From positions 19,895-83,894 of the forward strand of contig JBFESP010000006.1 in the NCBI GenBank assembly GCA_041548485.1: a stretch of DNA of 64,000 bases, read 5' to 3'. The notes under the pieces were generated by a model, which saw nothing but the letters and a program-made list of their open reading frames with translations, did not search any database and had not been told where the DNA came from. How positions within the stretch are numbered: position 1 is the stretch's first letter; each line of letters begins with the position of its first letter. Both the position numbers and the translations under genes were made by a program. Below are positions 46,724-63,492 of this stretch, piece after piece. The stretch comes from Thermoplasmata archaeon. Its GTDB lineage: Archaea; Thermoplasmatota; Thermoplasmata; UBA10834.

Positions 46724-47344
46724 CTAACTCGGGCTGTTGGCTGCGGCTTTCATGCGCTCATACTTCTCCTTGTACAGCTTCGCGCACACACTGCAGCAGA
46801 GGTAATGCGTCCGGCCGTCAAGCTTGATCTTCACACCCTCATCCCTCATCTGATGATCACAGTAGTAGCATTTGATGAGCAAGCTCGTCTCATCCTTGAC
46901 GGATGCCCGGGGGCTCTCCTTCGGGGTTCTGAGGACCATCGAGTTGTCCATCTTGGTTATCTCTGGTATGCTGCCGAGAGAGTGCATGAAGCTCTGGTAC
47001 TTCTTCTGGTCGTAGAAGGACAGGATGCACAGTATCCTGGAGTCCGATAGGACGTGTATCTGCCTGACAATGTCCTCGGTGCAGATCCTGTTCACCACTC
47101 GGTCTATGTCGGAAGGCCTCGCCTCCAAAATCGTGGCGACTGAGACCTGCCCCAAGAGGTCAGCGTCGAGCAGGACGGAATATCCCTTTATCAGGCCGAC
47201 GTCAGTCATGTTCTGGACGCGGGAGCTGACGGTGGGAGTGCTCACCTTCACCTTTGAGGATATCTCCCTGAACGAGGACCGCCCGTTCTCCTGAAGTTGC
47301 CTCAGTATCCTCCTATCGACGTCATCTAGAGTCATCATCTTCAC
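46724..47344 (-). CDS. Lrp/AsnC-family transcriptional regulator fused to C-terminal TRASH metal-binding domain
   Basis: N-terminal HTH_AsnC (LDDVDRRILRQLQENGRSSFREIS) with a RAM-like middle region. C-terminal TRASH motif CYYCDHQ...THYLCCSVC. Confidence 0.75.
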   Translation of the reverse strand: MKMMTLDDVDRRILRQLQENGRSSFREISSKVKVSTPTVSSRVQNMTDVGLIKGYSVLLDADLLGQVSVATILEARPSDIDRVVNRICTEDIVRQIHVLSDSRILCILSFYDQKKYQSFMHSLGSIPEITKMDNSMVLRTPKESPRASVKDETSLLIKCYYCDHQMRDEGVKIKLDGRTHYLCCSVCAKLYKEKYERMKAAANSPS

Positions 47345-47983: not shown

Positions 47984-48859
47984 TCAATCGCCTCCGTACA
48001 TCTCATTAGGCCCAAGATACTCCGGGTGGTCTCCTCGAAGGATGGTACGTGCCACGTAACATAGGTGGCAATCATCCGCGAACCTGTCCATCGGCAGCCC
48101 GACCCCAAGCTTTCGCACCAGCGCCGCCGGACCCCCTTCGATCAGTGCAGAAACCACAGGATGTTTCGACGGGTCGTACTCTTCGATGATGTCCTTCAGA
48201 CTTCTAGAGGCCGTGTCTCCGATGACTATGCCCTGGCATACATGGACCAGGCCAATGGGGTCGATATGGACCCGCCCAGGCGCTCTCAAGTCCTCAGGAC
48301 AGGACCCGAGTTCAGAAACCTCACGGGTGCAGTGGTCCCCCGCGAGTTTGTCCGAGGCACGACCTCTGAAATACAGCCCGCCATCAGCCCCCGCGCCTGC
48401 ATCTGGTTTGCACACCTCGATCACTCCGACCGGGATTCCGAGTCTTTCGGCGGCCTCAACGACCTCACGCGCCCTTCTATCGTCCGGGGAGAATCGGTGA
48501 TACTCATCATCGCTGATGCTCAGGTCCGAAACGCCGAGCTCTGCCAACGGGGCAAGCCACAGCTCCGCGTCCGCAACCGAGGTACCCCAATAGCCGTTGG
48601 TGACGATTCCGACATCGAACCCCATCGAGCGGGCCGCTCTCACCCCTTCCAGGACTACAGGGTAGTAGAGGAATGGTTCGCCCCCCTCGAAGTAGATCGT
48701 CCTGACGCTCTCGATCTCGCTCGCCTGGGCTAGCAACCTGCGAATCATCTCGATCGTCATCGTCGCCTCAAACTGGGGGCTAGCCCACACGAAGCAGTGG
48801 TCGCACTCCCTGTCGCAACGATACGTCGTTAGCAGGTGTACGCCTTCCAAGCCCGACAT
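47984..48859 (-). CDS. Radical SAM enzyme, small, function unknown
   Basis: CxxxCxxC cluster (CDRECDHC) near the N-terminus at the internal ATG (MSGLEGV), and GGEP glycine-rich motif. 291 aa with no SPASM/twitch extension. The listed 5' extension overlaps the upstream gene and is unlikely. Confidence 0.75.
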   Translation of the reverse strand: MSGLEGVHLLTTYRCDRECDHCFVWASPQFEATMTIEMIRRLLAQASEIESVRTIYFEGGEPFLYYPVVLEGVRAARSMGFDVGIVTNGYWGTSVADAELWLAPLAELGVSDLSISDDEYHRFSPDDRRAREVVEAAERLGIPVGVIEVCKPDAGAGADGGLYFRGRASDKLAGDHCTREVSELGSCPEDLRAPGRVHIDPIGLVHVCQGIVIGDTASRSLKDIIEEYDPSKHPVVSALIEGGPAALVRKLGVGLPMDRFADDCHLCYVARTILRGDHPEYLGPNEMYGGD

Positions 48860-48941: not shown

Positions 48942-50276
48942 TCACGCCTCGTCTCGCAGGTCCACACCCAGGTCTCGCATGCTCCGCTTGTACGAGCGGA
49001 TGATGGTCGAGTACTCCTTCGTGGGTCGGCGCTTCTCGGCGTCCCAGCACTCGTACAGAGACTTGCCGAGTGGCGGCTTGAGAAGCCTGTTCTCATATTT
49101 CCCGAGAAGCTTCTTCGCGAGCGTGTTGGCATCCTGTAGCTTCATGCCAGCGACGGCATGACCTACCTCCGCGGATATCCGCGGCTCGACCGGCGTCGTC
49201 CTATCCTCATACCTGTTGGACGCGATGCCCACGGATTCTATGGATAGCCCAGAGGTGACGGCCGCGGTGACCGATGCGGACGTCTCGAACAGAGCCATCG
49301 GTGTGCACGGGCCTGCCGAGGCGTAGTTCAGGTTGATGCTTAGCATATTGGAGTTGCGGGTGACTGCCTGACCGGTCGAGCTGATGACCCAGAGCAGTTC
49401 CCTGCAGCTGCTGGAGACGTACCTGAGGTGCAGTGGGAACGGCAGCAGCCAGCTCGCCTGGTATGTGAGTAGACCCATCATGTGATGGGCCACATTGGAG
49501 ACCGCCGTCCCCTCGGGACCGCCTGAGTACCCACCAAGGAGGGGGCCGAAGCACATGCCGATGGGACCTCCCATAGACAACGCGACCGCAGCTTTGTTCA
49601 GACGCGCGAAATCCACCTTCATGGGGTCCATGCAGCAGATCAAGTAGCCGTCCGACGGTCTCATGCCGTACCTCGGGTGCAGGGCCGCTGCGAAAGCGAT
49701 ATCCGACTCAGCCGTCGAGAGCGAGTTCATTATCGGTATGCCCTCGCGGCCTACGCGGTTGCAGGCCTCCCTTGCAAGGACTGCGTTTCTCATCGCTCCG
49801 AGTACTTCCAGCGGAGAAGCGGGCCTGATCCTCATTCCTCCGACACGCGTGAGAGCTGGCGTCGTGATCGCGTTCGTCTCTGGAATCTCCGCGTAGCCCT
49901 CAACGAGGGTCATGAACGACCTGTCACTCGACGCGGAACCACCGCCCGCACCTAGAAAGCACCATGGGGGGGTCTTGTCGCCAACCTTCCTCGATCTGAA
50001 GGTCTTCCTGTCGCGTCCCTCCCCGAGCTCGAGCGCGTCTGGGGCGGTCCTGATGGCCTCCCTTACCTCCTGGTCGGTGTACGATATGACTCGGGCGCTG
50101 CTTGTGCAGTAAGCACCGACATCGACGAGCAGCTCGACCGCCGCCTTGAAGATGTCGTCCACCAGGGAGCCGTCGTTCGGGATGGGGTTCTTCGGGTCGT
50201 ACTTGATGTCGTACTTCTTGACGACCTCCTGGACCTTCGGGGCGAAGCTGCGAAGCTGGTAGTCAGTCTCGCTCAT
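48942..50276 (-). CDS. MtmB-family (monomethylamine methyltransferase-like) protein lacking pyrrolysine
   Basis: Full-length collinearity with MtmB (for example KVGDKTPP, LGGYSGGPEGTAVSNVAHHMMGLLTYQASW, YASAGPCTPMALFETSASVTAAVTSG). Continuous ORF with no in-frame UAG. The region aligning to the Pyl loop reads GREGIPIMNSLS and is 2-3 residues shorter. Start at the internal ATG (MSETDYQ) with a GAAGGAAA RBS. Confidence 0.75.
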   Translation of the reverse strand: MSETDYQLRSFAPKVQEVVKKYDIKYDPKNPIPNDGSLVDDIFKAAVELLVDVGAYCTSSARVISYTDQEVREAIRTAPDALELGEGRDRKTFRSRKVGDKTPPWCFLGAGGGSASSDRSFMTLVEGYAEIPETNAITTPALTRVGGMRIRPASPLEVLGAMRNAVLAREACNRVGREGIPIMNSLSTAESDIAFAAALHPRYGMRPSDGYLICCMDPMKVDFARLNKAAVALSMGGPIGMCFGPLLGGYSGGPEGTAVSNVAHHMMGLLTYQASWLLPFPLHLRYVSSSCRELLWVISSTGQAVTRNSNMLSINLNYASAGPCTPMALFETSASVTAAVTSGLSIESVGIASNRYEDRTTPVEPRISAEVGHAVAGMKLQDANTLAKKLLGKYENRLLKPPLGKSLYECWDAEKRRPTKEYSTIIRSYKRSMRDLGVDLRDEA

Positions 50277-50328
50277 CGGTTTTCCTTCGAGAGCCCGCCC
50301 CATCACGTCGAGGAACTGGACCAAGACG

Positions 50329-51003
50329 TCACTTCCCCTTGGCCAACTTGTTCGCCAGCTTGATCGTCGTGGCTGCGTCCTCTCCCCAGCCATCGGCCCC
50401 GATCTCGTCGGACCACTCGCCGGTCGTCGGACCGCCTCCGACCATCACTGCGAACTTCTTCCTTTCCTTCAGCGAGACCAGATAGTCCACGATGTCCTTC
50501 TGCGACCCTATGGTGCTGGACATCAACGCAGAGGCACCGATTATCTTCGCGTTGGAGCGCTTGGCCTCCTCCACGAATGTCGTCGTCTTGACATCGACAC
50601 CCAGGTCGATGACGTTGAAGCCGTTCGCCAATAGCATGTTGGATACGATGTTCTTGCCGATCTCGTGCACATCTCCCTGGACCGTCCCAATCGCCACGGT
50701 GGCCTTGGAGACCATCTCGCCCTTCGGGACCAGAGGCAGGAGCAGGGCCATCGCCGTCTTCATCGCGTCGGCGGCAAGCATCAACTCGGGGAGGTATATC
50801 TCCATCTTCTCGAACTTGTCTCCCACCTTCTCGATCGCAGGCACCAATCCCTTCTCAATCGCCTTCAGCGGGTCAACCTTCGCCCTTATCGCATCCTTCG
50901 CTGACTTCTCGGCAGCCGAAGAATCGAAGGACAGGATGGCGTCGCCGAGCGACTTGAACATCTTCTTCTCATCCATGGGGTTCCTTCCTAGCAGCGCGGA
51001 CAC
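50329..51003 (-). CDS. Cobalamin-binding corrinoid protein (MtmC/MtbC/MttC-like)
   Basis: B12-binding N-terminal cap plus Rossmann domain with DxHxxG (GDVHEIGKN). 224 aa. Confidence 0.9.
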   Translation of the reverse strand: MSALLGRNPMDEKKMFKSLGDAILSFDSSAAEKSAKDAIRAKVDPLKAIEKGLVPAIEKVGDKFEKMEIYLPELMLAADAMKTAMALLLPLVPKGEMVSKATVAIGTVQGDVHEIGKNIVSNMLLANGFNVIDLGVDVKTTTFVEEAKRSNAKIIGASALMSSTIGSQKDIVDYLVSLKERKKFAVMVGGGPTTGEWSDEIGADGWGEDAATTIKLANKLAKGK

Positions 51004-51129: not shown

Positions 51130-52572
51130 TCAGAACTCGTCTATTACCTTCTTGAGTGCTGACAGTCTGGCACCATCGAGTTTCTCCGGCTGGTGCTCGG
51201 ACAGCATCTTCTGAGCCTTCTCCTCTGCGACATCCATCAGGTCTCTCTTGCCGCTTTCCTCCCACGATTCGTACGAGGACATGTCCCACAATGTCGACAT
51301 GTAGAAGTCCTTCACATGCTTCACCGTGTGCATCTCGCCCAGATAGTTCCTGCCGATGCCGACCTTCTTTATCAGATCCAGCGAGACAGACTCGTCGTTG
51401 ACCTCGATGTCTCTGTTGGAGTTCAGCACGAGAGCCACAATCTCGTTGTCTATGACCATCTGAGCGAAGGAGAGCAGGGTCGAGCCGTCCGCAAGGCCTA
51501 TACCGTTCATTATCTCACAGCCGACAGCGGCCAGCGGCGGAGAGAGGACGGCGTTCTCGACGGACTGTCTCAGTCCTGGAGTCCTCGCACTGCCCCCCAT
51601 TCCGCCAGCGGAACATGGCACGTCCAGATACTTCGCCATCTCCACATTGCCGATGCTCAGCATTATCGTCTCCGGGGCGCCCGAGTTGTAGGCGCCCGTC
51701 TTGGGGTCCATGCTAGACTGAACTGAGCCGTACAGGAACGGCGCACCAGGCTCGTGCGCCTGCATGGCACAGGCAAGGGCCATGGTCTCAGCATGGTTGA
51801 CGACGAGGCTGCCGGCCACCGTGGCGGGGCCGCTCAGGCCCATGCTCGCCATGCCGGTTATGTGCACAGGAACGTGGTTCTCGGCCCAGACCATCGCAGC
51901 GTCGGTCGCTCCGCCGTCAAGGACGAGCGGGGATATCGTGCACACCATCGCGGAGATATAGTGACGTTTCCTGAGCTCCTCCTCGGATCCGACGACGGCC
52001 GCCGCCATCTTGACCTGAGCCCGAGCCTCCTCGGGGGTCGTCGTGGACTCGGTCTCGATATGCTTGGTCGTGTTCTCCATGCCAACCTTCAACCCCTCGA
52101 GGACGTGTGTCTTCGAGGAGATGTCATGCGCCACCACCATCGGCTCGAATATGCTCAGGTACGGCAGCGCGTCGCCCAGAACGGCCGTCTTTCGGATGTC
52201 CTCGAGGACGGATTGACGACGGCTCTTGGTCCTAGGGTCCCACACGGCGATGCCACAGCCGTCGGTGGTGTAGTAGTGATGACGGCGGTCCAGAGGCAGG
52301 TCGTAGTCCTTCGTCCGTCCAGCGAGAACGATGCTAGACGGCGCCTTGGACATCAGTGAGTTGACGAGATCAGGGGAGAACTTCACGACGTTCGTCTTGT
52401 CGTCAACGGCTGCCCCCGCACGTTTCAACGAGTCTCGCGCAACCGGACTCATCACCCTGATTCCAGTGTTCTCAAGAATATCCAGCGCGGAATCATGTAT
52501 CTTCTTCCTATCCGAGTCCTTCATGAAGGACCTTGGCTCTCTCACCTTGAATCTGTCTGCAAACATTGACAT
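51130..52572 (-). CDS. MttB-superfamily (trimethylamine methyltransferase-like, COG5598) methyltransferase, non-pyrrolysine
   Basis: 480 aa. N-terminal pattern typical of the MttB family (KIHDSALDILENTGIRV...LKRAGAAVD...VKFSPDLVNSLMSKAPSSI) and TIM-barrel-length body. No in-frame UAG. AGGAGG RBS. Confidence 0.85.
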   Translation of the reverse strand: MSMFADRFKVREPRSFMKDSDRKKIHDSALDILENTGIRVMSPVARDSLKRAGAAVDDKTNVVKFSPDLVNSLMSKAPSSIVLAGRTKDYDLPLDRRHHYYTTDGCGIAVWDPRTKSRRQSVLEDIRKTAVLGDALPYLSIFEPMVVAHDISSKTHVLEGLKVGMENTTKHIETESTTTPEEARAQVKMAAAVVGSEEELRKRHYISAMVCTISPLVLDGGATDAAMVWAENHVPVHITGMASMGLSGPATVAGSLVVNHAETMALACAMQAHEPGAPFLYGSVQSSMDPKTGAYNSGAPETIMLSIGNVEMAKYLDVPCSAGGMGGSARTPGLRQSVENAVLSPPLAAVGCEIMNGIGLADGSTLLSFAQMVIDNEIVALVLNSNRDIEVNDESVSLDLIKKVGIGRNYLGEMHTVKHVKDFYMSTLWDMSSYESWEESGKRDLMDVAEEKAQKMLSEHQPEKLDGARLSALKKVIDEF

Positions 52573-52709: not shown

Positions 52710-54143
52710 TCAAACGCCGACCATCTTCTCGTAGTCTGCGATGATCCCGTCACCCTTGCGCTTCATGTCACCGTCCAACGAAGGGACCTCATGCTCCCGG
52801 AGTATCCTCTTGGCGATCTCCTTCGCCTCGGGGACCATGGCATCGGAGTATGTCCTCTCCCAGTCCTTCTTCGCCTCATCGAAGAAGAACAGCTCCTTCT
52901 TGAAGTTGCGGGCTGTGTGGACATGGCTGAGGAAGGTGTTGCCGTGGCCCACCTGCTTCACGACATCCAAAGCGATCGTCTCGTCGGAGATCTCGAACCG
53001 CCTCATGAAACCACGGACATGCTCCCAGATGCGTGATTCGATGACTGCCTGCTCGTATGACACGCCCTTGACGGCGTCAATCCCGCCGATACCGGAGATG
53101 AGATCGGAGTTGCCCATGGAGCTCAAAGCCACGCCCATGACCTCCGAGAACGATTGTGGGATGCCCGGCGTTTCCTTGTCGTTTATACCCCACTCGCCCA
53201 CCATCGACGGCAGACCGTATCTTCTCGCCATCTGACCGAGCCCAGCGGCGATGATGCAGTGCTCCGGAACCATGTAGTTGATTACTCCTGTCTTCATGCT
53301 GATCGGGGCCGATGATGAGCAGTATATGTGCGGGGAACCAGGAGCGGCGAACTGGGTGATCACCAGGCTTGCCAGGTTCTCAGTGTTCGCGTTCGATATC
53401 GTCCCCGCCATGGTGACGGGACTTGACCCCCCCGGGAGGGACATAGACATCGACATTATCGGTATGCCCGCCCTCACCAGCTCGACCATCCCTTCGACGG
53501 CTCCACCCTCGTACGAGAGGGGAGCGATCGAGCAACAGATCACGGAGAACAACGGCCGCTTCCTCAGCTCCTCCTCGCTCCCTGCGATGAGGGCTCCGAG
53601 CTCCACCTGCTTGCGCGAATCGGCAGCGCCCATCACGGAAACGCCGTTCACGTGCTTCGTCGTGTTCTGCATGGCCGTCCAGAGCTCATGAAGACCGTGT
53701 GAGATCTGAGGCACCTCGTTCGCCGTGATGGACGTCCACAGGAAATCGACCCCATCGAGCCCATCGCCTAGACGAATGAAATCGGCTATGTCCTTCCTAG
53801 TCGACGGCTTCTTCTCGCCCGTCTCCATATCCCTGATGTACACTCCCAGGCCGGAGGTGGCCACGAACGGAGGGCCGGATACCGGGATCTCCATATCGTG
53901 CTTCGGATCCCTGGCACAAAGACGTATGCTCCTGGGTGCCTTCATCAGAGCCTCATTGACCATTTCCTCAGGTATCTTCGCGATCATCTTCGTGAAATCA
54001 ACTTCCGCACCGGAATCGCTGAGCATCTTCAGCGTCACGTCGCTGCGTATGAGCATGCCTATCTCCTGTAGGCTCTTCAGGCTGGATTCGTGTATCAGAT
54101 CCTGCTCATCCCCGGACAGAAAAACAAGTCTCGCTACCGCCAT
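52710..54143 (-). CDS. MttB-superfamily methyltransferase paralog, non-pyrrolysine
   Basis: 477 aa from the internal ATG (MAVARLVFLSGDEQDLIHESSLKSLQEIGMLI...). Same family as the adjacent gene but divergent. TATA CCCATATTATAGGGG lies about 60-75 nt upstream. Confidence 0.85.
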   Translation of the reverse strand: MAVARLVFLSGDEQDLIHESSLKSLQEIGMLIRSDVTLKMLSDSGAEVDFTKMIAKIPEEMVNEALMKAPRSIRLCARDPKHDMEIPVSGPPFVATSGLGVYIRDMETGEKKPSTRKDIADFIRLGDGLDGVDFLWTSITANEVPQISHGLHELWTAMQNTTKHVNGVSVMGAADSRKQVELGALIAGSEEELRKRPLFSVICCSIAPLSYEGGAVEGMVELVRAGIPIMSMSMSLPGGSSPVTMAGTISNANTENLASLVITQFAAPGSPHIYCSSSAPISMKTGVINYMVPEHCIIAAGLGQMARRYGLPSMVGEWGINDKETPGIPQSFSEVMGVALSSMGNSDLISGIGGIDAVKGVSYEQAVIESRIWEHVRGFMRRFEISDETIALDVVKQVGHGNTFLSHVHTARNFKKELFFFDEAKKDWERTYSDAMVPEAKEIAKRILREHEVPSLDGDMKRKGDGIIADYEKMVGV

Positions 54144-54202
54144 GTTACTGCACTCCCCATCGATGCCCCGTTCGTCAACGGGCGTGTCCGCAATCCTCAA
54201 CC

Positions 54203-54272: not shown

Positions 54273-55202
54273 TCAAGCGAGGGGCTTCGTGTCTGGCGTG
54301 GGGGCCTTCTCCTGCAGCCCCTTCATCAGGACGATGTATAGGCCGCCGATGACCAGGATTGAACCGACCACTATCCATCTACCGGGCATCTCGTCAGGAA
54401 GGAGGAAGTACGCCAGCACCGAAGCGCCAATCGGCTCGGCAAGAAGGGATGTCGAGACGATGTGCGCAGGGAGCGTTTTGAGGGCGAAGTTGAACATCGT
54501 GTGGCCGAAGATGGTCGGAACGACCGCCAGTAGGACGAACAGCGAGAGCTCGCGATGCGACGACACTGCGATGACATCGCCCACGATGACGGCTCCGACG
54601 AACAGCATGGCTGCGCATATCAGATAGACCGTGAAGACATACGTTCCCAGTGACACCTTCTGCCTCGCCCGCCTCCCGGAGAGGAGGTAGATGCCCGCAC
54701 AAATACCGCCGAGGAATGCCAGCGTGTTCCCCGTCATGTTGGTCCCCCCCAGCTGTAAGTCTGCCACCGAGATGACACACACGCCAAGAAACGCGACGAC
54801 TATGCCTATCGCCGCTATACGACGCACACGCTCACCGAGCACGAAATGCGACACGCCCGCCACGAACATAGGGTGGGCCGTCACAAGCACGACGGATGTC
54901 GCCACCAGCGTGAGGCTGAGGGACGCAATCCAGAGGCCGAAATGAAACGCCAACGCGGTGGCGCTGACGAAGATGAGGACCCACTCGCGCAGCGGGAGGG
55001 AGCGGAGTTCGGTGAGTCCACGGCTCCTTGCGACGAACGGAAGGAGCATGGCGCACGTGAAGAAGAGTCTGTAGAACGTGATCACGAAAGGCGTCGACTC
55101 ACACCACTTGATCAGTATCGGTGCGAACGAGATCGATACCATCGCGACGACTACCGCGGTGTAGGCTCTGGATACCTCGCTGCCAGCCACTATACGCGTC
55201 AC
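54273..55202 (-). CDS. EamA/DMT-family transporter
   Basis: 309 aa. Ten TM helices and duplicated EamA domains. Immediately upstream of and co-oriented with the methyltransferase genes. Confidence 0.75.
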   Translation of the reverse strand: MTRIVAGSEVSRAYTAVVVAMVSISFAPILIKWCESTPFVITFYRLFFTCAMLLPFVARSRGLTELRSLPLREWVLIFVSATALAFHFGLWIASLSLTLVATSVVLVTAHPMFVAGVSHFVLGERVRRIAAIGIVVAFLGVCVISVADLQLGGTNMTGNTLAFLGGICAGIYLLSGRRARQKVSLGTYVFTVYLICAAMLFVGAVIVGDVIAVSSHRELSLFVLLAVVPTIFGHTMFNFALKTLPAHIVSTSLLAEPIGASVLAYFLLPDEMPGRWIVVGSILVIGGLYIVLMKGLQEKAPTPDTKPLA

Positions 55203-55242: not shown

Positions 55243-55743
55243 TCAGTAGATCGTGACGCCTCTGACGCCCCTCGCCTGGCGGATCAGAGGGATGATCTCA
55301 GAAGGCACCATGCTGTCGGTGACGATGAACAGCTTGGGTTCCTCGGAGGTCATGGGGTCGTCCACTATAGCCTGCCGGATCGATATGTTCGACCGCATCA
55401 GAATCTCCGCCACGCCTGAGATGATGCCAGGCTCGTGGGCATTCACCGGGACGATCTCGATGGCGCTCCACCCCATCGCCGAGGCCGCGTTCTTCAGGTG
55501 GTTCGTGGGCAGAAGCTGCGAGAAGAACTTCTGCAGCGTCGAATCGCCCTTTATCGTCTCAACCGTAGACTTCACCACTCTCCGGTCAACGCCCGCTGCT
55601 CTCGCAAGTGCTGAATCTGCTATCTGTACGTCGCCGCAATAGACACGGTCCCCGTGTATGCGGAGGCCGTACTTCAGCAGATACCGGGCGACCTTCGCCT
55701 GGGACGGGTACTTCTCGAAGTAATTGGCTATTCTATCCCACAT
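55243..55743 (-). CDS. ACT-domain regulatory protein (COG2150-like predicted regulator of amino-acid metabolism)
   Basis: 166 aa. N-terminal HTH-like region and C-terminal ACT-like fold. Divergently arranged with the aro operon. Confidence 0.5.
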   Translation of the reverse strand: MWDRIANYFEKYPSQAKVARYLLKYGLRIHGDRVYCGDVQIADSALARAAGVDRRVVKSTVETIKGDSTLQKFFSQLLPTNHLKNAASAMGWSAIEIVPVNAHEPGIISGVAEILMRSNISIRQAIVDDPMTSEEPKLFIVTDSMVPSEIIPLIRQARGVRGVTIY

Positions 55744-55894: not shown

Positions 55895-56680
55895 ATGGTT
55901 GGAAAGACGATCAGGCTGAGACGCATCTTCGACCAGAAGAGCGGGAATACCGTGATCGTGCCGATGGATCACGGCATCTCCCTCGGTCCGGTCAAGGGTT
56001 TGGCGGACATTAGGAGCACGGTCGACAGACTCGCAGAAGGCCGAGCCTCTGCGGTAGTGGTCCACAAAGGCCTGGTCCCATATATCGGCACTGCCGTAGG
56101 AGCTCCGCTGGGACTAATCGTCCACATATCCGCCAGCACATCGATGTCCCCCGACCCCAACGCGAAGGTGTTGGTGGCAAGCGTCGACGCGGCGGCCGCG
56201 CTCGGGGCGGACGCGGTCTCGATCCACTGCAACATCGGAAGTGACACCGAGAACGTAATGGTTTCCGATTTCGGGATGGTCTCGGACAGATGCGGCGAAC
56301 TGGGCATGCCACTCTTGGCGATGTGCTACCCCAGGGGCAAGAACGTCAAGGACCAGTTCGATGTGGACGCTGTCAAGCATGTCGCGAGATTGTCCGCCGA
56401 GCTCGGCGCCGACGTGGTGAAGACGAACTACACGGGTTCGATCGACACCTTCAAGGAGGTCGCCAACGGAACGCCAGTGCCGGTGGTCATCGCCGGCGGC
56501 CCGAAGATGGATTCCGACATGGACCTCCTCAAGATGGTGAGCGACGCCATGACAGCCGGCGCCCGTGGCGTCTCCATCGGCCGGAACGTCTTCCAGCACG
56601 ACGACGTGGCCATGATCACGAGAGCCATCGGAAAGGTTGTTTTCGAGGGGGCAGCCCCCGAGGATGCTTATAGGCGGTGA
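55895..56680 (+). CDS. aroA': 2-amino-3,7-dideoxy-D-threo-hept-6-ulosonate (ADH) synthase (AroA', DhnA-type aldolase)
   Basis: Class I aldolase fold with Schiff-base Lys region (ADVVKTNY). Family of MJ0400. First gene of the aro operon. Confidence 0.8.
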   Translation: MVGKTIRLRRIFDQKSGNTVIVPMDHGISLGPVKGLADIRSTVDRLAEGRASAVVVHKGLVPYIGTAVGAPLGLIVHISASTSMSPDPNAKVLVASVDAAAALGADAVSIHCNIGSDTENVMVSDFGMVSDRCGELGMPLLAMCYPRGKNVKDQFDVDAVKHVARLSAELGADVVKTNYTGSIDTFKEVANGTPVPVVIAGGPKMDSDMDLLKMVSDAMTAGARGVSIGRNVFQHDDVAMITRAIGKVVFEGAAPEDAYRR

Positions 56681-57716
56681 TCCCCTGGTCGGCCGTCAGG
56701 TCTGGATCGGGGCGATCTTCCAGCCAAACAGGGAGAGCAGGAAGAAGATCGTCCTATCCGCTTTGGAAGTAGGATTCGACACGATAGTTCTCGACAAGAG
56801 GGACTCAGCGTTCACTGAGCTCGGGAGGTTCAGAGCCATCACTCTTTCTGGGAGCAGCTTCACGGAGGACGGAAGAGCCGTTGGGAAGCTTGTGGAGATA
56901 GTCAAGAAGGAGGACGAGCTGAAGGCGAAGAAGTTGACTGATGAAGAGGACCACGTGGTAATCTCCGCGAATGACTGGAAGGTGATCCCTCTTGAGAATC
57001 TCATCGTTCATTTCCAGGGTAGTCGTGCCAAGCTACTCATGGTCGCAAGGACGATAGAAGAAGTGAAGCTGTTCTTCGAGACCATGGAGCGCGGGGCGGA
57101 CGGTGTCCTCTTCGCACCCAAGAGGGTTGAGGACCTGGGCAGGCTGCGCAAGCTGGTCGAGAAGGAGTCACCCAAGCTCGACTTGAAGGAGGGGAAGATA
57201 ACCGTCCTCAGGCAGCTGGGGCTCGGGGACCGGGTCTGCATCGACACATGTTCGGTACTGCGTATCGGCGAGGGGATGCTGATAGGCAACCAGTCATCAT
57301 GCATGTTCCTCATCCACTCTGAGACCCTCGAGTCGGAGTACGCAGCTTCGAGACCGTTCAGGGTGAACGCTGGCCCAGTCCACGCATACATATTGATGCC
57401 TGACGGAACCACGAGATACCTGTCAGAGCTCCGCGGAGGAGAGGAGGTGCTGGTGGTCGACTCCGGGGGACACACCAGAACGGCTATCGTCGGGAGGACG
57501 AAGGTTGAGAGCAGACCGCTGCTCCTGATAGAGGCCGAAGTGGACGGCTCCAAGTACTCCACCATCGTCCAGAACGCCGAGACCATACGAGTGTACTCCA
57601 GGGGAAAGGTCGTGTCAGTCTCGAAACTGAAGGTGGGGGATCCCATCCTGCTGAGGTTGGAGAAGGGTGGACGCCACTTCGGCATGTACGTGGATGAAAC
57701 CATACAGGAGAGGTGA
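56664..57716 (+). CDS. aroB': 3-dehydroquinate synthase type II (AroB')
   Basis: Similarity to archaeal DHQ synthase II (QVWIGAI...KKIVLSALEVGFDTIVL). Start chosen at MLIGGDP. Confidence 0.8.
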   Translation: MLIGGDPLVGRQVWIGAIFQPNRESRKKIVLSALEVGFDTIVLDKRDSAFTELGRFRAITLSGSSFTEDGRAVGKLVEIVKKEDELKAKKLTDEEDHVVISANDWKVIPLENLIVHFQGSRAKLLMVARTIEEVKLFFETMERGADGVLFAPKRVEDLGRLRKLVEKESPKLDLKEGKITVLRQLGLGDRVCIDTCSVLRIGEGMLIGNQSSCMFLIHSETLESEYAASRPFRVNAGPVHAYILMPDGTTRYLSELRGGEEVLVVDSGGHTRTAIVGRTKVESRPLLLIEAEVDGSKYSTIVQNAETIRVYSRGKVVSVSKLKVGDPILLRLEKGGRHFGMYVDETIQER

Positions 57717-59209
57717 TGATGACCCTCGTTGTCGCTTCTCTCGTCGAGAGAGGCATTGCCGGAGTCGCTCGCTCGTCAAAGGAGGCCTTTGCAGCGGGAG
57801 CGGACGCGGTCGAGATCCGCCTGGACCACATACGCGGTCTTGAGCGGAAGACGGGGCTGCTGGATGAGGCGCGCTCTGCGATTGACGGACCGGCCATCGC
57901 TACCCTTCGCTCGGCTCGAGAGGGAGGCCTCTCACGATGCACAGGTGCCAACAGAGCACGGTTGATGGCCACGGTCCTAGATTCCGGGTTCGACTACGTG
58001 GACCTCGAGCTGGTCATGGACAGGAAGCTTCTGGAATACCGCAGGGGCAGACCACGTGGACCGAAGGTGATCGGATCATACCACTTCCGGCGCCCGGCTA
58101 CGCGATCCGAGATAAGAGGACGGCTCGAACGGGCCTGCGGGACGGCAGACATAGGGAAGGTGGCCGCACCCTGCAACCACGCTGGTCACGCGATCGCGAT
58201 CGCGGACGTTGGGTTGGAGTTCTCGAGGAAGAAGCGTGTGTTCGCCGTAATGGGAATGGGTGTCCAGGGGCAGCTGACTCGTGCGTGCGCCAATGGTATC
58301 GGTTCCGAGCTCGTATACGCATGCCTCCCCGGCAGCCCTGCGGCACCAGGTCAGCTCGACGTCGTTCTCCAGTCAGATCTGCTGCGTAAGGAATCCGTCG
58401 TTCTCGGACTCGTCGGGCATCCTTTGACGCACTCAGTGTCCAAGCCCATGCATGAGGCAGCCCTCCGCAGCGTCGGCCTCAAGGGCATCTACATGCCCCT
58501 CGATGTGCCTCCCGGAGGCATGGGCCGGAGGGCGGTCACGACGCTGTTCAAGATCGGCTTCACCGGGCTCAATGTGACCATCCCGCACAAGCGGAAGGCT
58601 TTCGATATCTGCGACGACCACCGCCCGTCCGCTGCATCTACAGGCGCCGTCAACACGCTCGGATGGACGAACGGCAAGCTTGTGGGAGAAAACACAGATG
58701 TACTCGGGCTAACAAAGCTCATTGACGCTAAAAAGGTACGAACGAAAGGGGTCGATTCGCTAGTGGTCGGAGCCGGAGGAGCTGCTCGCGCAGCGTGCCG
58801 GGTCCTCTTGGACGGTGGGTCTGCCGTTACTGTCGTGGCGAGAAGAGACGGCAGGGCACGCGCTCTCGCTAAGTCCTGCGGGGTCCTGGCCGGGTCGTTC
58901 TCTTCCGCGTCGGCAGGGACAGGCATCTTTGGCATCGTGGTCAATGCAACGCCCGTGGGGACACGCGGGACACGACTGGAAGGAGTGACCATTCCCGAGA
59001 GCTTGCTGGAAGGTAGGCCGGTGTTTATCGACCTGGTATACAATCCCCCCGTGACAGGAAGCATGAGGCTGGCGCGGGACAGAGGCTGCGTCGCACACGG
59101 GGGATTGGAGATGCTCGTCGGTCAGGGGGCGGAGGCGTTCGGCATATGGACAGGATACGCTCCGGACCCAAGCGTGATGAGAGCGGCCGCCAGGAGGGCT
59201 TTGGCATGA
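57713..59209 (+). CDS. aroDE: Bifunctional 3-dehydroquinate dehydratase (type I) / shikimate dehydrogenase
   Basis: N-terminal AroD-I region and C-terminal AroE with the NAD(P)-binding GAGGAARA motif. Confidence 0.85.
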   Translation: MMMTLVVASLVERGIAGVARSSKEAFAAGADAVEIRLDHIRGLERKTGLLDEARSAIDGPAIATLRSAREGGLSRCTGANRARLMATVLDSGFDYVDLELVMDRKLLEYRRGRPRGPKVIGSYHFRRPATRSEIRGRLERACGTADIGKVAAPCNHAGHAIAIADVGLEFSRKKRVFAVMGMGVQGQLTRACANGIGSELVYACLPGSPAAPGQLDVVLQSDLLRKESVVLGLVGHPLTHSVSKPMHEAALRSVGLKGIYMPLDVPPGGMGRRAVTTLFKIGFTGLNVTIPHKRKAFDICDDHRPSAASTGAVNTLGWTNGKLVGENTDVLGLTKLIDAKKVRTKGVDSLVVGAGGAARAACRVLLDGGSAVTVVARRDGRARALAKSCGVLAGSFSSASAGTGIFGIVVNATPVGTRGTRLEGVTIPESLLEGRPVFIDLVYNPPVTGSMRLARDRGCVAHGGLEMLVGQGAEAFGIWTGYAPDPSVMRAAARRALA

Positions 59210-60075
59210 GGACGGGAGAGGCGGCCAGCAGGGGAGCAGCGACGATAGTGAACGCCATCGCCTCCGGAAAGGGTGCGGCCTTCGGCATCAGCCTCGAGGT
59301 CGATGCCCGCATCCAGCTCGAAACGGGCGACGGGCCAATAGACGTCGACGGACCGAAGGAGGGGGATGGGCTTGTGGTAGGCTGCATCAGAGCCGCGGCG
59401 TCGGCGACGGGGGCTGGCCCCGTCAGAGGAAAGGCCGTTATCAGGTCAGACATACCGATATCCAGAGGGCTGAAGAGCAGCAGTGCGGTCTCAAACGTAG
59501 TCGCCCTCGCCACGCTCAGAGCGGTCGGGAGGGACCTGAAAGACGATGCGCTTCTGAACATCGCGATCGATGAGTCCATGCGGGCGGGCGTGACGATCAC
59601 GGGAGCGTACGACGACGCTGCGGCATGTCATTTCGGGGGGCTCGTCGTGACAGACAACATATCCAGGACAGTCATCAAGAGGGGAGCGTTGGACCCGGAG
59701 CTCGCCGTCCTGATCCAGGTGCCGGAGGGGAGGATAGCGAAAAGCAGCGTCGACCCGGCCCGCTTCGCCGAGCAGAGCGAGGATTTCGAGAACGCGCTCG
59801 GCCTCGCCGTCAGGGGGGATTATCTTGAGGCCATGGCTCTGAACTCGAGGGCCACGGCCAAGGCGCTAGACCTATCCGACGAAGCGCCAGCTGCCGCAAG
59901 GAAGGCGGGAGCCCTTGCCGCCGGAATAACTGGAACAGGACCTGCGAGCGTCGCCCTGTGCAGGCGCGATAGGATCAAGGATGTCGAGAAGGCGTTGGCC
60001 GCCTTCGACGGCAGCGTCATCCATGCCAGCCTGAACTCGACGCCGTCCAGGGAGGTGGTTCCGCGGCTATTGTAG
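59206..60075 (+). CDS. aroK: Shikimate kinase, archaeal GHMP-kinase type
   Basis: GHMP motif region (PISRGLKSSSAVSNVVA) and an N-terminus matching the archaeal SK (ATIVNAIASGKGAAFGISLEV). Confidence 0.85.
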   Translation: MRTGEAASRGAATIVNAIASGKGAAFGISLEVDARIQLETGDGPIDVDGPKEGDGLVVGCIRAAASATGAGPVRGKAVIRSDIPISRGLKSSSAVSNVVALATLRAVGRDLKDDALLNIAIDESMRAGVTITGAYDDAAACHFGGLVVTDNISRTVIKRGALDPELAVLIQVPEGRIAKSSVDPARFAEQSEDFENALGLAVRGDYLEAMALNSRATAKALDLSDEAPAAARKAGALAAGITGTGPASVALCRRDRIKDVEKALAAFDGSVIHASLNSTPSREVVPRLL

Positions 60076-61337
60076 TCCGGTCGTCGACGGCAAGGGGCAC
60101 GGTCACAGCACCGCCCTCGAAGTCCTACACTCACAGAGCCATGGTCCTCGGGGCGCTGACGAGGAACAGGTTCACGCTGAAGAGTCCATTGTTGTCCGAC
60201 GACACGACGGCCACCCTCGACGCTCTGGCATCTATCGGGACGGACGCCGATGTCCGGTCAGGGGGCCATATAAGACTGACATGTCACGAGCTCAAGTCAC
60301 CGGGAAGAGTGATCGATGTCAGGAACTCAGGGACGACCATCCGGTTGATGAGCGGGATAGCATCCCTGCTCGATACGCCGATCACATTGACCGGCGACGC
60401 CAGCCTCATCAGGCGACCGATGGCGCCGCTCGTGGACGCCCTCGGCCAGCTCGGTGCCAGCTGTGCATACATCGGCCAGCCCGGAAGGCCTCCCCTCAGG
60501 ATCACAGGGCCCATCACCAAGGCCGAGGCGGAGATCGACGGTGGCGTCAGCTCGCAGTTCGTCTCCTCGCTTCTCGTAGCATGCACTCAGAAGGCGTCAT
60601 CGACGAAGTTGAGAGTGAATGGGACCATCACTTCCCGACCCTACGTGGACATAACCCTTGAGATGCTTGCGCAGTTCGGCGCGAGGGTCGATGAAGGCCC
60701 AACGGGCTTCGACATGCCGGGCAGCCAGAGGCTCCGGAGGGACGATTACACGGTCCCAGGAGACTATTCGTCGGCGGCGTTCATGTTGGCTGCTGGAGCG
60801 GTCACCGACGGTGCTGTGACTGTCAGACGGCTGGACGCCGAATCAGCGCAGGGAGACAAGGCGATACTTGAACACCTCGACCGCTTCGGCGCGGATGTTT
60901 CGCGCGCCGCACACACGGCGACTGTGAGAGGGGGCAGGCTCGTGGGCGCCGAGATCGACGTCGGCGATACCCCTGACCTGTTCCCGGTGCTCGCCGTGGT
61001 GGGGGCTGTGGCAGAAGGGAAGACTGTGCTCAGAGGGGGGGTGAACCTGAGGGCGAAGGAGAGCGACCGTATCGCAACGACTACGAAGTTCCTCCAGGAC
61101 ATGGGTGCGAGGATAAGACCTATGGAAGACGGGTGCGAGATCATCGGCGTGCCGAAGCTGGCAGGGGCCAGGGTGGACACCCAGGGGGACCACAGGATTC
61201 TTATGGCTGCAACTGTTGCTGCCCTGGTATCTGGCACCGAGACAGTCATCGAGGACGAGGAGTCCTTCAAGGTGTCGTATCCCGGCTTCATCAGGGACCT
61301 GCACCAGCTGGGATGTCGTGTGGAGGTGAGGAAATGA
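60069..61337 (+). CDS. aroA: 3-phosphoshikimate 1-carboxyvinyltransferase (EPSP synthase)
   Basis: Full EPSPS fold. The conserved N-terminal PPSKSYTHRA motif is encoded upstream of the first canonical start codon (ATG 60141). A 5' boundary at ATT 60069 is proposed. See findings. Confidence 0.85.
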   Translation: MVVRSSTARGTVTAPPSKSYTHRAMVLGALTRNRFTLKSPLLSDDTTATLDALASIGTDADVRSGGHIRLTCHELKSPGRVIDVRNSGTTIRLMSGIASLLDTPITLTGDASLIRRPMAPLVDALGQLGASCAYIGQPGRPPLRITGPITKAEAEIDGGVSSQFVSSLLVACTQKASSTKLRVNGTITSRPYVDITLEMLAQFGARVDEGPTGFDMPGSQRLRRDDYTVPGDYSSAAFMLAAGAVTDGAVTVRRLDAESAQGDKAILEHLDRFGADVSRAAHTATVRGGRLVGAEIDVGDTPDLFPVLAVVGAVAEGKTVLRGGVNLRAKESDRIATTTKFLQDMGARIRPMEDGCEIIGVPKLAGARVDTQGDHRILMAATVAALVSGTETVIEDEESFKVSYPGFIRDLHQLGCRVEVRK

Positions 61338-62410
61338 ATATCATCGGATCGGCTTACAAGGTGTGCATATTCGGCTCGAGCCATGGTCCATTCGTGGGGG
61401 GCAGCGTCCAGGGCTGCCCGCACGGGGAGAAGATCTCCACAACCGCCATACAGATCGAGCTTGACCGGAGAGCGCCCGGCAAGGGGCCGGTGTCGACTCC
61501 CAGGAGTGAGAGAGACAGGATAGAGATCGTCTCCGGACTGCACAACGGAAGGGCTACGGGAGCTCCTATAGTCGGGCTCGTGAAGAACCGCGACTGCGAC
61601 TCGTCGGCGTACGACGCTTTCAGGAGGGTTCCGAGGCCCGGACACGCAGACTATCCTGCGCTCGTCAAGTACGGCGGCAGCAACGACCACCGCGGGGGAG
61701 GGCAGTTCTCCGGCAGAATGACCGCGGGGCTCGTCTTCGCCGGTGCGGTGGCAAGACAGGTTCTGGAGAGGCGCAAGGTGAGAGTCCTCGCCCAGACGGT
61801 GCAGATCGGGAAGGTGAAGCTCGAGAAGCATGTGCCATTCAGTGCGGCGGAGAAACTGACCCGTAACAACGCCGTCTGCTGCGCGGACCGGGCGGTCGCC
61901 GAACGGATGAAGGATGAGATCGTGAAGGCGCACGAGGAGAAGGACAGCGTCGGCGGCGTCGTGCGCTGCACTGTGCTCGGAGTCCCAGTCGGAGTCGGCG
62001 AACCGTTCTTCGGGTCGATAGAGAGTTCTCTCTCAGCCATGATGTTCTCGATACCAGGCGTCAAGGGCGTAGAGTTCGGGGCCGGATTCGCATCTGGGGC
62101 GTTGCGAGGAAGCGAGAACAACGACCCTTTCATAGTCCGAAACAAGAAGATAGCCACGAAGTCGAACAACGCCGGAGGCATACTGGGCGGGCTCTCCACG
62201 GGCATGCCCATAGAATTCAGGGTGGCATTCAAACCGACATCGTCGATCGCTAAGCCACAGATGAGCGTGGACATCGAGGCGATGAAGCCCATCGAACTCG
62301 TCGTCAGTGGAAGACACGACCCGTGCATAGTGCCGAGAGCAGTGCCAGTGGTCGAGAACTCCGCAGCGGCGTGCACGCTGGATCTGATGCTCCAGGGGGG
62401 TTTCATCTGA
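61334..62410 (+). CDS. aroC: Chorismate synthase
   Basis: MNIIGSAYKVCIFGSSHG start (ATGA overlap with the aroA stop). Conserved chorismate synthase signatures. Confidence 0.95.
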   Translation: MNIIGSAYKVCIFGSSHGPFVGGSVQGCPHGEKISTTAIQIELDRRAPGKGPVSTPRSERDRIEIVSGLHNGRATGAPIVGLVKNRDCDSSAYDAFRRVPRPGHADYPALVKYGGSNDHRGGGQFSGRMTAGLVFAGAVARQVLERRKVRVLAQTVQIGKVKLEKHVPFSAAEKLTRNNAVCCADRAVAERMKDEIVKAHEEKDSVGGVVRCTVLGVPVGVGEPFFGSIESSLSAMMFSIPGVKGVEFGAGFASGALRGSENNDPFIVRNKKIATKSNNAGGILGGLSTGMPIEFRVAFKPTSSIAKPQMSVDIEAMKPIELVVSGRHDPCIVPRAVPVVENSAAACTLDLMLQGGFI

Positions 62411-63492
62411 CGAAGGTCGAACTCGACTCGCTGCGCGAGGAGATCACACGGGTGGACATATCCATCCTGTCGCTCCTGGCGAGACGCATGGAGGCCGCCC
62501 AGGAGATCGGCCTCACCAAGACGAAGGACGGCGCGGAGGTCAGGGATGCGTCCCGCGAGGAGGCGGTGGTGAGGGACTTCGCAGAGAGGGCGAGAGTCCT
62601 GGGCCTCGACGAGGGGATGGCGACGACCATAGCCAACACGATCATCGAGGAGGCGGTCCGGACCCAGCTCGAGCAGGACGTGGGGCACCTACAGGGGAAG
62701 AGGATCGTCATCATCGGGGCCGGACGAATGGGTGCATGGGCCGCACGTTTCGCCTCCAATCGGGGCGCCGCAGTCTCAGTGCACGATCCGAGAGGCACCC
62801 TTGACGGCTACGAGAACCTGCAATCGCCCGAAGACGGGGCGGGGGACGCCGACTTCGTCATCATCGCCAGTCCTCTCGGGACAGCGAAGGAAGACTTGCG
62901 GGCCCTGTTCTCGGCGAAGCCCTCGGGCATCATCTTCGACCTCTGCAGCGTGAAATCCTACCTGAAGGACGTCCTACGGGAGGGAGTGGCGAAAGGTTTC
63001 AGGATCACCAGCGTACATCCGATGTTCGGGCCCGGTGCCATCACGCCGAGGGGCAAGAATGTGCTTGTCTGCAGCTGTGGCTGTGGTGAGGCGGATGCCG
63101 CGGCCAGGCAGTTGTTCGAGAACGAAGGAGCCATCGTCACTGATGTACCCATTGACGGCCACGACAGGCTCATAGCCCATGTCCTCGGGGCCCCTCACAT
63201 ATGCGCTCTTGTATTCGGCAGAGCCGTCTCGAAGTCGGGACTGTCGCCCAAGGATCTCGCCACGGTTCATGGACCGTCGTTCGCGGCGTTATGCGCGCTG
63301 GCAGGAAGCATATCGAGAGAGAGCAGACGCGTGTATCACGATATTCAGAAGCTGAACCCGCACACAGCGGAGGTGATCCGATCCATCGAGCAGGCGCTTG
63401 ACGAACTCAGGAACGCCTCGCTGGACGATGACCCTGGGAGGTTCGCGAGGATCATGGACGATGAGAGAGACTTCTTCGGAGGCTGGTCGTGA
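62371..63492 (+). CDS. tyrA: Chorismate mutase (AroQ) / prephenate dehydrogenase (TyrA) fusion
   Basis: CM helix (LDSLREEITRVDISILSLLARRMEAAQEIG) followed by the TyrA Rossmann (IVIIGAGRMG). The 5' boundary is ambiguous: GTG 62371, ATG 62323, or a CTG overlapping the aroC stop. Confidence 0.8.
   Translation: MHAGSDAPGGFHLTKVELDSLREEITRVDISILSLLARRMEAAQEIGLTKTKDGAEVRDASREEAVVRDFAERARVLGLDEGMATTIANTIIEEAVRTQLEQDVGHLQGKRIVIIGAGRMGAWAARFASNRGAAVSVHDPRGTLDGYENLQSPEDGAGDADFVIIASPLGTAKEDLRALFSAKPSGIIFDLCSVKSYLKDVLREGVAKGFRITSVHPMFGPGAITPRGKNVLVCSCGCGEADAAARQLFENEGAIVTDVPIDGHDRLIAHVLGAPHICALVFGRAVSKSGLSPKDLATVHGPSFAALCALAGSISRESRRVYHDIQKLNPHTAEVIRSIEQALDELRNASLDDDPGRFARIMDDERDFFGGWS

Follow-up and report, generated by a model that had tools for sequence, protein, structure and literature searches.

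Pyrrolysine (Pyl), encoded by an in-frame UAG codon at residue 202, is the mark of the monomethylamine methyltransferase MtmB of Methanosarcina barkeri, whose gene adjoins that of a corrinoid protein. MtmB homologues that lack Pyl have been recognised for many years (PMC13044021; PMC9768040), and the first of them to be characterised, in 2026, was MtqB, which uses tetramethylammonium and choline and is weak on monomethylamine (11 nmol/min/mg) (PMC13044021). MtqB is ACT9XH_RS04775 of Methanococcoides methylutens Q3c, a protein of 459 aa and 49,382 Da, and its gene lies directly after a corrinoid gene annotated as MtbC-like. The pocket predicted for MtqB is described as rich in aromatic residues and in residues that contain sulfur, a conserved Met and a conserved Cys among them, and no metal is invoked (PMC13044021).

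The MttB superfamily offers a parallel, as it was likewise founded on a Pyl enzyme and most of its members are Pyl-free (MtgB, MtcB, MtpB and MtyB). These Pyl-free enzymes pass methyl groups from quaternary amines to a corrinoid protein and on to tetrahydrofolate, and two such genes lie in the cluster described here. However, MttB is a separate family, with only the TIM-barrel architecture in common with MtmB (TM about 0.5).

For metagenome-assembled genomes of Candidatus Gimiplasmatales, mtmB, mttB and mttC have already been listed and methylotrophy proposed (bioRxiv 10.1101/2020.03.09.984617; PMC11264602). These papers take mtmB as a monomethylamine methyltransferase; the missing Pyl, the Met/Cys signature and the operon structure are undiscussed there. 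The window, i.e. the whole stretch of 64,000 nucleotides analysed here, comes from a host of this same order, the non-methanogenic Thermoplasmata order UBA10834, and its MtmB-like gene belongs to the same gene family as the annotated mtmB.

An intact MtmB-family gene without UAG

The MtmB-like gene occupies 48942..50324 on the minus strand and encodes 460 aa, as supported by its open reading frame and by Pfam and PDB matches. It starts with TTG at 50324, 4 nt past the stop codon of the corrinoid gene, and ends with TGA. The surrounding open frame (48942..50393, minus strand) is uninterrupted in the ORF listing of the window, and we found zero in-frame UAG codons in the gene, as an earlier note on this DNA had described. 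That note had placed the start at 50276, which is 48 nt short and loses 16 residues; the corrected TTG start is backed by the N-termini of homologues (MVQ[IL]LDVMEKALEG) and by concordant gene calls.

A UAG concealed by sequencing error was a further concern. The identical 460-aa protein was called on four independent assemblies, and all 54 close copies from other genomes are free of internal stops and carry Met at the Pyl column. Hence, a hidden UAG is excluded. The dN/dS of the gene is 0.06-0.11; the gene is intact and under strong purifying selection.

The protein matches the Pfam MtmB family (PF05369) with an E value of 1.7e-93 (314.4 bits vs a cut-off of 25) over profile positions 3-449 of 450, and it matches PDB entries 1L2Q/1NTH with an E value of 1.7e-69 over residues 11-456. 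Corroborating these matches, Foldseek superposed its AlphaFold model (pTM 0.87) on the same M. barkeri MtmB structures with a TM of 0.91 and an rmsd of 2.3 Å over 455 columns, the active-site region of the model being of low confidence (pLDDT 50-66 for residues 200-270). The two proteins are 32-33% identical and of nearly equal length (460 vs 458 aa), and the window protein keeps the G-R-x-G strand before the Pyl column, GGY, AGPCT and E348. Hence, the protein is collinear with MtmB across its full length, as had been claimed, and lies inside the family rather than outside it: it is a full-length MtmB-family member without pyrrolysine.

Methionine occupies the pyrrolysine column

At the column of Pyl202 of M. 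barkeri MtmB, the window gene has the ATG codon of Met199 (49728..49730, minus strand), within the stretch E-G-I-P-I-M-N-S-L-S (49716-49745, minus strand). Met199 stands opposite Pyl202 in all four alignments, by HMMER, by MAFFT with 7 and with 155 sequences, and by hhalign, so the UAG of strict-sense MtmB is absent there and the Pyl-equivalent position is not misaligned. Met199 is invariant in 64 clade members, and the ATG codon was confirmed in the 25 loci where the codon was extracted. The absence of the catalytic Pyl, proposed from a hand-made comparison, thus holds under every alignment method used.

The same comparison had suggested that the loop is 2-3 residues shorter than in MtmB, and this was not established. 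The HMMER alignment and both MAFFT alignments are gapless after the Pyl column. Only hhalign yields a gap, pairing M with Pyl and N with G, leaving three residues out, pairing SLS with SLS and then compensating directly with five inserted residues. The segment that runs from the Pyl column up to the conserved Asp has 26 residues in the window protein vs 24 in MtmB and is thus two residues longer. The AlphaFold models agree with the gapless register, as a short helix begins 8 residues past the Pyl-equivalent both in the window protein (M199 to 207, with low confidence at 203-209) and in a close MtmB relative (K202 to 210). P0386 was rejected as a Pyl-type reference, since its Pyl column holds AAG, a genuine Lys codon, and was kept as a close structural proxy for MtmB. 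Hence, the deletion appears with one alignment method only; it is probably an artefact that arises when the two SLS tripeptides are paired.

Clade-specific cysteines and methionines

The exchange of Pyl for Met is accompanied by others. Cys258, at the position of MtmB Glu259, forms with Met257 a clade-specific invariant pair (49551..49556, minus strand); in contrast, Glu259 is invariant in the 17 aligned sequences closest to Pyl-MtmB (alignment A3). D258, E229 and Q333 of MtmB are replaced by M257, L228 and L332. A second clade-specific invariant motif, Cys230-Cys231-Met232 (49629..49637, minus strand), is located at the end of a predicted barrel strand (226-231).

In total, C122, C230, C231, C258, M199, M232 and M257 are invariant in the clade, as are Y227 and W292. 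Each of the four Cys and three Met occurs in 0-6% of 125 family representatives, and all seven are positioned in or at the ends of barrel strands in the predicted model. The Bathyarchaeota relatives (50-55% identity) have Met199 as well, but neither the CC nor the MC motif. Hence, the motif is dispensable for the wider subfamily.

The window clade has invariant Met and Cys residues around the Pyl column; for MtqB, with which the clade was compared by description only, a conserved Met and Cys are described from the predicted pocket. Work by Hao and colleagues from 2002 is said to give Glu259 of MtmB a structural role beside Pyl; in the literature searched, no confirmation was found as to which MtmB residues contact Pyl.

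A large and almost uncharacterised group

The window gene belongs to a large group that is already recognised and almost uncharacterised. Our representative search found more than 120 full-length Pyl-free MtmB clusters at 50% identity. The earlier statement that this family is very poorly characterised therefore stands as regards characterisation; however, the family is not rare and has long been known (PMC13044021; PMC9768040).

The survey of orthologues proposed in the earlier note found copies at 71-94% identity in about 45 Thermoplasmata species by genome scan, and there are hundreds of metagenomic copies of the window clade. Carriers include the isolates UBA10834, RBG_13_57_23, RBG_19FT_COMBO_56_21 and UBA9653, with copies in the first three 76-84% identical to the window gene. 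The genome scan also gave Bathyarchaeota copies at 43-55% identity, which are equally uncharacterised.

The window clade falls in a group with those sequences from Bathyarchaeota, Asgard and bacteria in which the Pyl column is followed by Asn, whereas MtqB lies near the Pyl-MtmB branch (PMC13044021). No full-length representative of a cluster in the 50%-identity library was more than 41% identical to the window protein, and the same bound, derived from these representatives, is applied to MtqB, which was compared by description. Searching from P0191 retrieved Pyl-free Methanomassiliicoccales homologues, and searching from P0404 retrieved the Methanosarcinales Pyl-free clade, including Methanococcoides proteins of 455-456 aa, none of which fits the length and mass of MtqB. 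Identity is about 29% to the retrieved Methanosarcinales paralogues and 27% to the closest Methanomassiliicoccaceae homologue. Given the bound of 41% and the 29% to these paralogues, no substrate can be transferred by homology.

The corrinoid partner and the gene cluster

As with MtmB and MtqB, the gene adjoins a corrinoid gene. This gene (50329..51003, minus strand) encodes the cognate B12-binding protein of 224 aa, with intact Pfam B12-binding and B12-binding_2 domains and the DxHxxG motif (DVHEIG); its nearest NCBIfam models are MtgC/MtbC-like. Nearly all archaeal and most bacterial loci keep this gene order, with the corrinoid gene first and the MtmB-like gene second, and the pairing is conserved across about 45 related species.

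The corrinoid gene is preceded on the same strand by two genes for Pyl-free methyltransferases of the MttB superfamily, identified by Pfam, NCBIfam and alignment. One (51130..52572, minus strand) encodes 480 aa with Gly at the Pyl334 column, and the other (52710..54200, minus strand) encodes 496 aa with Ile at that column. At the head of the same-strand cluster is a gene for an EamA-family (drug/metabolite transporter) membrane protein (54273..55202, minus strand), which is syntenic in 10 related loci and is a candidate substrate transporter. Betaine/choline transporters of the BCCT or OpuA type are absent from the cluster, with the EamA protein there instead.

Host, use of UAG and methyl acceptor

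In the literature, the lineage of the host is without methanogenesis and without pyl genes, a further difference from MtmB; specifically, the order, whose MAGs include the four carriers named above, lacks pylBCDS (bioRxiv 10.1101/2020.03.09.984617). In the window, TAG terminates 9 of the 40 long ORFs, and neither tRNA genes nor Rfam matches were found within its 64 kb, which is consistent with an organism that does not decode UAG.

Neither a pterin methyltransferase nor a RamA-type activase was found within the 64-kb window. In related genomes, a methyltetrahydrofolate:corrinoid methyltransferase passes the NCBIfam NF005719 cut-off (266.9 vs 259 bits), and its gene and a second corrinoid gene lie side by side, at a distance of about 9 kb from the MtmB-like orthologue. 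The host thus probably hands methyl groups to tetrahydrofolate; in contrast, MtqB serves a methanogen in which the methyl group goes to coenzyme M.

Proposed function and alternatives

On balance, we favor a functional, Pyl-independent, corrinoid-dependent methyltransferase (MT1) of the MtmB family whose donor is probably a compound other than monomethylamine. With a methylated compound bound, this enzyme would transfer the methyl group to the Co(I) form of the corrinoid protein, whose gene lies 4 nt upstream. [quoted passage not shown] By analogy with MtqB, the donor is more likely one that has no need of activation by Pyl, for example a methylammonium compound that is quaternary or pre-charged in another way. 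Since the cluster combines two MttB paralogues, an EamA protein and a single corrinoid gene, the reaction could be one step in a multi-step demethylation.

The doubt about monomethylamine raised in the earlier note is well founded: with Pyl replaced by Met199 and Glu259 by an invariant Cys, the donor is probably not monomethylamine, and the donors of MtqB are tetramethylammonium and choline (PMC13044021). A Pyl-free enzyme that is nonetheless a true monomethylamine:corrinoid methyltransferase, and that in concert with the two MttB paralogues would make simple methylamines usable without Pyl, is unlikely. All annotation sources do label the clade 'monomethylamine:corrinoid methyltransferase', the literature on the order accepts this (PMC11264602), the low activity of MtqB on monomethylamine is measurable, and both MttB neighbors score higher against the Pyl-type MttB 7XCL (193-210 bits) than against MtgB (157-170 bits). 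However, besides the two replaced residues, the window protein matches no NCBIfam model, the cluster contains no MtbB homologue for dimethylamine, and the identity to M. barkeri MtmB (32%) and to Methanomassiliicoccaceae (27%) is low.

The clade-specific residues raise another reading, in which a cysteine-based site, with a metal or a thiol, replaces Pyl and acts on a non-quaternary donor (methanol, methylthiol, a methoxy compound, a halomethane, or a secondary or primary amine). Such an enzyme would resemble MtaB, which is Zn-dependent. The seven invariant Cys and Met residues in or at the ends of predicted barrel strands, rare elsewhere in the family, argue for it, as does strain DCMF, in which a Pyl-free protein of the MtmB superfamily showed the strongest induction of any protein on dichloromethane (PMC9768040). 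It is unlikely all the same, as the Bathyarchaeota relatives keep Met199 without CC and MC, and the pocket of MtqB is likewise sulfur-containing and aromatic with no metal invoked (PMC13044021). Quite improbable is an extended form of this idea, in which C122, C230, C231, C258, M199 and M257 make up a new activation site, metal or thiol, that replaces Pyl in Gimiplasmatales and takes a non-quaternary amine (monomethylamine, sarcosine or another N-methyl amino compound), so that with the two MttB paralogues and one shared corrinoid protein a trimethylammonium compound would be fully demethylated without Pyl. That the gene is an artefact or dead, through a masked UAG, as a pseudogene or as a non-catalytic relic, is barely conceivable; we found no point in its support, and it is refuted as far as sequence data go by the four identical assemblies, the 54 uninterrupted copies with Met, the low dN/dS and the conserved, tight pairing with the corrinoid gene.

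The favored reading, an MT1 with a donor other than monomethylamine, bears on genome surveys of sediment archaea, where the gene is read as "monomethylamine methyltransferase" and models of methylotrophy are built on that. Since the catalytic residue that defines this activity is missing, the inferred substrate is probably wrong. With one characterised member so far, the Pyl-free MtmB family may here yield a second function, and the clade is a natural comparison for asking which chemistry really requires pyrrolysine. Its presence in about 45 species-level genomes, the strong purifying selection and the compact operon make it a tractable target.

Other genes at the locus

A radical SAM protein of 291 aa is encoded 82 nt downstream of the MtmB-like gene (47984..48859, minus strand). 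We regard it as an accessory gene and rejected it as a conserved partner, since it is confined to the window and its three nearest relatives (L006-L008) and is missing from the otherwise syntenic L005 and L009-L013. The protein is not PylB-like; its top match is to YydG, a peptide epimerase, in the N-terminal core. PMC10418091, which concerns the mlp gene cluster, mentions neither MtmB nor radical SAM in the version consulted.

Tandem copies in Planctomycetota (L070, L075) appeared to contain in-frame stops, and these are natural TAG stops at gene ends. Near the window cluster and syntenic with it is a gene for an Lrp/AsnC-type regulator with a C-terminal TRASH domain (46724..47344, minus strand). 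On the other side, an ORF of 166 aa (55243-55743) was rejected as a cluster member, as it encodes a TrpY-family regulator of the neighboring aromatic amino acid genes.

An MtmB-family protein with methionine in place of pyrrolysine

The protein encoded at 48942-50324 on the minus strand (460 aa) belongs securely to the monomethylamine methyltransferase (MtmB) family. We found it is collinear with MtmB, as the earlier note had claimed, matching Pfam PF05369 over its full length (E 1.7e-93) and, at residues 11-456, the M. barkeri MtmB of the PDB (E 1.7e-69), and its AlphaFold model (pLDDT 78.6, pTM 0.87) fits the M. barkeri structures 1NTH/1L2Q with a TM score of 0.91 and an rmsd of 2.3 Å. The open reading frame is uninterrupted over 48942..50393 (minus strand), with a TTG start at 50324, 4 nt past the stop codon of the corrinoid-protein gene that precedes it. 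Since homologues begin with MVQ[IL]LDVMEKALEG and the 460-aa product is called identically on four independent assemblies, this TTG is the true start. Hence, the start first placed at 50276 was 48 nt short.

All four alignments (HMMER, MAFFT with 7 and with 155 sequences, and hhalign profile-profile) put Met199 opposite Pyl202, the pyrrolysine of M. barkeri MtmB. Met199 is an ATG at 49728-49730, within E-G-I-P-I-M-N-S-L-S, and sits in strand 198-202 of the AlphaFold model; Pyl202 is anchored on a barrel β-strand (PMC9842639). Methionine is invariant here in 64 aligned members of the Gimiplasmatales (order UBA10834) clade and is present in 54/54 close genomic copies, all free of internal stops; the codon is ATG in all 25 loci from which it was extracted. 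Because the identical protein is found on four assemblies and all 54 close copies have Met, a hidden UAG or a sequencing error is excluded. Hence, the reading frame lacks pyrrolysine, as first reported. Of 40 long ORFs in the window, 9 end in TAG, and no tRNA gene or Rfam match was found in its 64 kb, consistent with an organism in which UAG is not translated as pyrrolysine.

The pyrrolysine loop and active site

The earlier note had also described a loop shortened by 2-3 residues. HMMER and MAFFT are gap-free after the pyrrolysine column; hhalign alone reproduces that hand alignment, pairing M with Pyl and N with G, then leaving a 3-residue gap before SLS is matched to SLS and five inserted residues follow directly. 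From the pyrrolysine column to the conserved Asp, the window protein is 2 residues longer than MtmB. We also modelled P0386 (pLDDT 91), which is nearest to M. barkeri MtmB among the full-length sequences collected, and found the short helix after the strand begins 8 residues past the pyrrolysine equivalent in both models (K202 to 210 in P0386, M199 to 207 in the window protein), which argues against a deletion. Since the window model has low confidence at residues 203-209, we call the deletion not established; it is probably an artefact of the SLS coincidence.

P0386 (L083:3122-4510, from the Methanomassiliicoccaceae MAG GCA_009784745.1) is 46% identical to M. barkeri MtmB and has a genuine AAG lysine codon at the pyrrolysine column (GMGIK-GPDTPLS); lysine also occupies it in four more sequences (P0385, P0387-P0389). 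A PylC-like ATP-grasp gene lies 200 nt downstream (L083:4711-5856).

E229, E259 and Q333, which we take to line the pyrrolysine pocket in 1NTH, are all replaced. Glu259 is invariant in the 17 aligned sequences closest to pyrrolysine-containing MtmB and is an invariant Cys258 in the window clade; E229, D258 and Q333 become L228, M257 and L332. Ten residues (M199, C122, Y227, C230, C231, M232, M257, C258, W292 and N333) are invariant in the clade and occur in 0-6% of 125 family representatives, and all map within predicted barrel strands or to their ends. Bathyarchaeota relatives retain Met199 and lack the CC and MC motifs.

A distinct clade within a large pyrrolysine-free family

We searched 1.84 billion cluster representatives exhaustively with HMMER and obtained 938 matches (219 under 1e-30). 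Among the best 150 of the 938, more than 120 are full-length (about 455-470 aa) and uninterrupted, and across representatives the pyrrolysine-column residue varies (L, I, V, M, H, Q, A, G and others). The window protein shares just 41% identity with the best full-length representative; hence, the Gimiplasmatales clade forms a distinct subfamily, with Bathyarchaeota, Asgard archaea, Thermoleophilia and Spirochaetota sequences as nearest neighbours. Since the window protein is only 27-29% identical to Methanomassiliicoccales homologues and 32% to M. barkeri MtmB, we reject recent pyrrolysine loss from the sister order's enzyme.

Surveying one genome per GTDB species for orthologues, we found copies 71-94% identical in about 45 Thermoplasmata species, including isolates UBA10834, RBG_13_57_23, RBG_19FT_COMBO_56_21 and UBA9653. 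These four are MAGs that define the non-methanogenic order UBA10834 (Ca. Gimiplasmatales), sister to Methanomassiliicoccales and reported without mcr and pylBCDS (bioRxiv 10.1101/2020.03.09.984617; PMC11264602). Bathyarchaeota copies are 43-55% identical, and those of Spirochaetota, Anaerolineae, Desulfobacterota and Planctomycetota 33-41%. The top match, isolate SG225.bin4 (94%, L006), has a second paralogue (76%, L054) on a different contig in a different gene context; the window organism may likewise have a second copy beyond the window.

Gene context

The order corrinoid gene, then MtmB-like gene, is kept in virtually all Thermoplasmata loci and in most bacterial ones. In the window, as in ten related loci, the pair belongs to a run of genes (context A), all on one strand (minus in the window): an EamA transporter (54273-55202), two pyrrolysine-free MttB-like genes (52710-54200, 496 aa, Ile at the Pyl334 column; 51130-52572, 480 aa, Gly at that column), the corrinoid protein (50329-51003) and the MtmB-like gene. 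For both MttB paralogues, the score against pyrrolysine-type MttB (trimethylamine methyltransferase, 7XCL) exceeds that against MtgB, the glycine betaine enzyme, and both fall under the NCBIfam cut-off for trimethylamine methyltransferase.

In most species (context B), the pair is accompanied by a PAS/GAF histidine kinase, an ABC transporter with a family-5 solute-binding protein, a HAD hydrolase and a divergent MttB. In three context-B loci (L030, L031 and L081; L081:1-1589), a methyltetrahydrofolate:corrinoid methyltransferase passing the NCBIfam NF005719 cut-off adjoins a further corrinoid gene, about 9 kb away from the MtmB-like gene; no such methyltransferase gene is in the window. The L030/L031/L081 gene could supply the second methyltransferase described as missing in Gimiplasmatales (PMC11264602).

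Proposed function

Pyrrolysine-free MtmB proteins are said to have been known for many years (PMC13044021, 2026). The first function reported for one is that of MtqB from Methanococcoides methylutens Q3c, whose gene follows that of a corrinoid protein and which uses tetramethylammonium (37 nmol/min/mg), choline (42) and, weakly, monomethylamine (11) to methylate cob(I)alamin (PMC13044021). In strain DCMF, the protein most strongly induced on dichloromethane is reported to be a pyrrolysine-free member of the MtmB superfamily (PMC9768040). The window gene is of a known, recently opened kind and not a new kind of system; its protein is at most 41% identical to MtqB, an upper bound rather than a direct comparison.

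We favour, with some reserve, a functional pyrrolysine-independent MT1 (the substrate-specific first methyltransferase) that would take a methyl group from a donor other than monomethylamine and hand it to the adjacent corrinoid protein. [quoted passage not shown] The clade-specific cysteines could instead form a cysteine- or metal-based activation site for another class of methyl donor, which we consider unlikely. A true monomethylamine enzyme working without pyrrolysine seems quite improbable. An artefact or relic is scarcely credible, as dN/dS of 0.06-0.11 against orthologues and the paralogue indicates strong purifying selection. The first reading was essentially right apart from the start coordinate and the loop deletion, and the gene is real and conserved.

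PMC11264602 and the papers cited therein list mtmB for Gimiplasmatales and take it as monomethylamine use. This annotation, in a widespread sediment archaeal order, is a likely mis-annotation that the present reading corrects, and the window gene is a clean target toward a second substrate in the pyrrolysine-free MtmB family.

Flanking genes

A gene for a 291-aa radical SAM protein (47984-48859, minus strand) follows the MtmB-like gene in the same orientation after 82 nt. The protein resembles only the N-terminal core of the peptide epimerase YydG (PDB 8AI3, E 8e-15), falls far under the TIGR04078 cut-off (E 1.4e-21), and is confined to the window and its three closest relatives (L006-L008), being absent from otherwise syntenic genomes. 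An Lrp/AsnC-type regulator fused to a C-terminal TRASH domain (PF24273; 46724-47344, minus strand) is syntenic downstream of the methyltransferase cluster. Directly flanking that cluster, and syntenic in related genomes, are a TrpY-family regulator (55243-55743, minus strand; NCBIfam NF053754, 186 bits against a cut-off of 180) and the adjoining archaeal-type shikimate cluster (55895-63492, plus strand: DeoC-like aldolase, DHQ synthase II, DHQase/shikimate dehydrogenase, GHMP-type shikimate kinase and EPSP synthase). A 715-aa protein at 1535-3682 (minus strand) carries one lamin-tail and two PLD-like domains.
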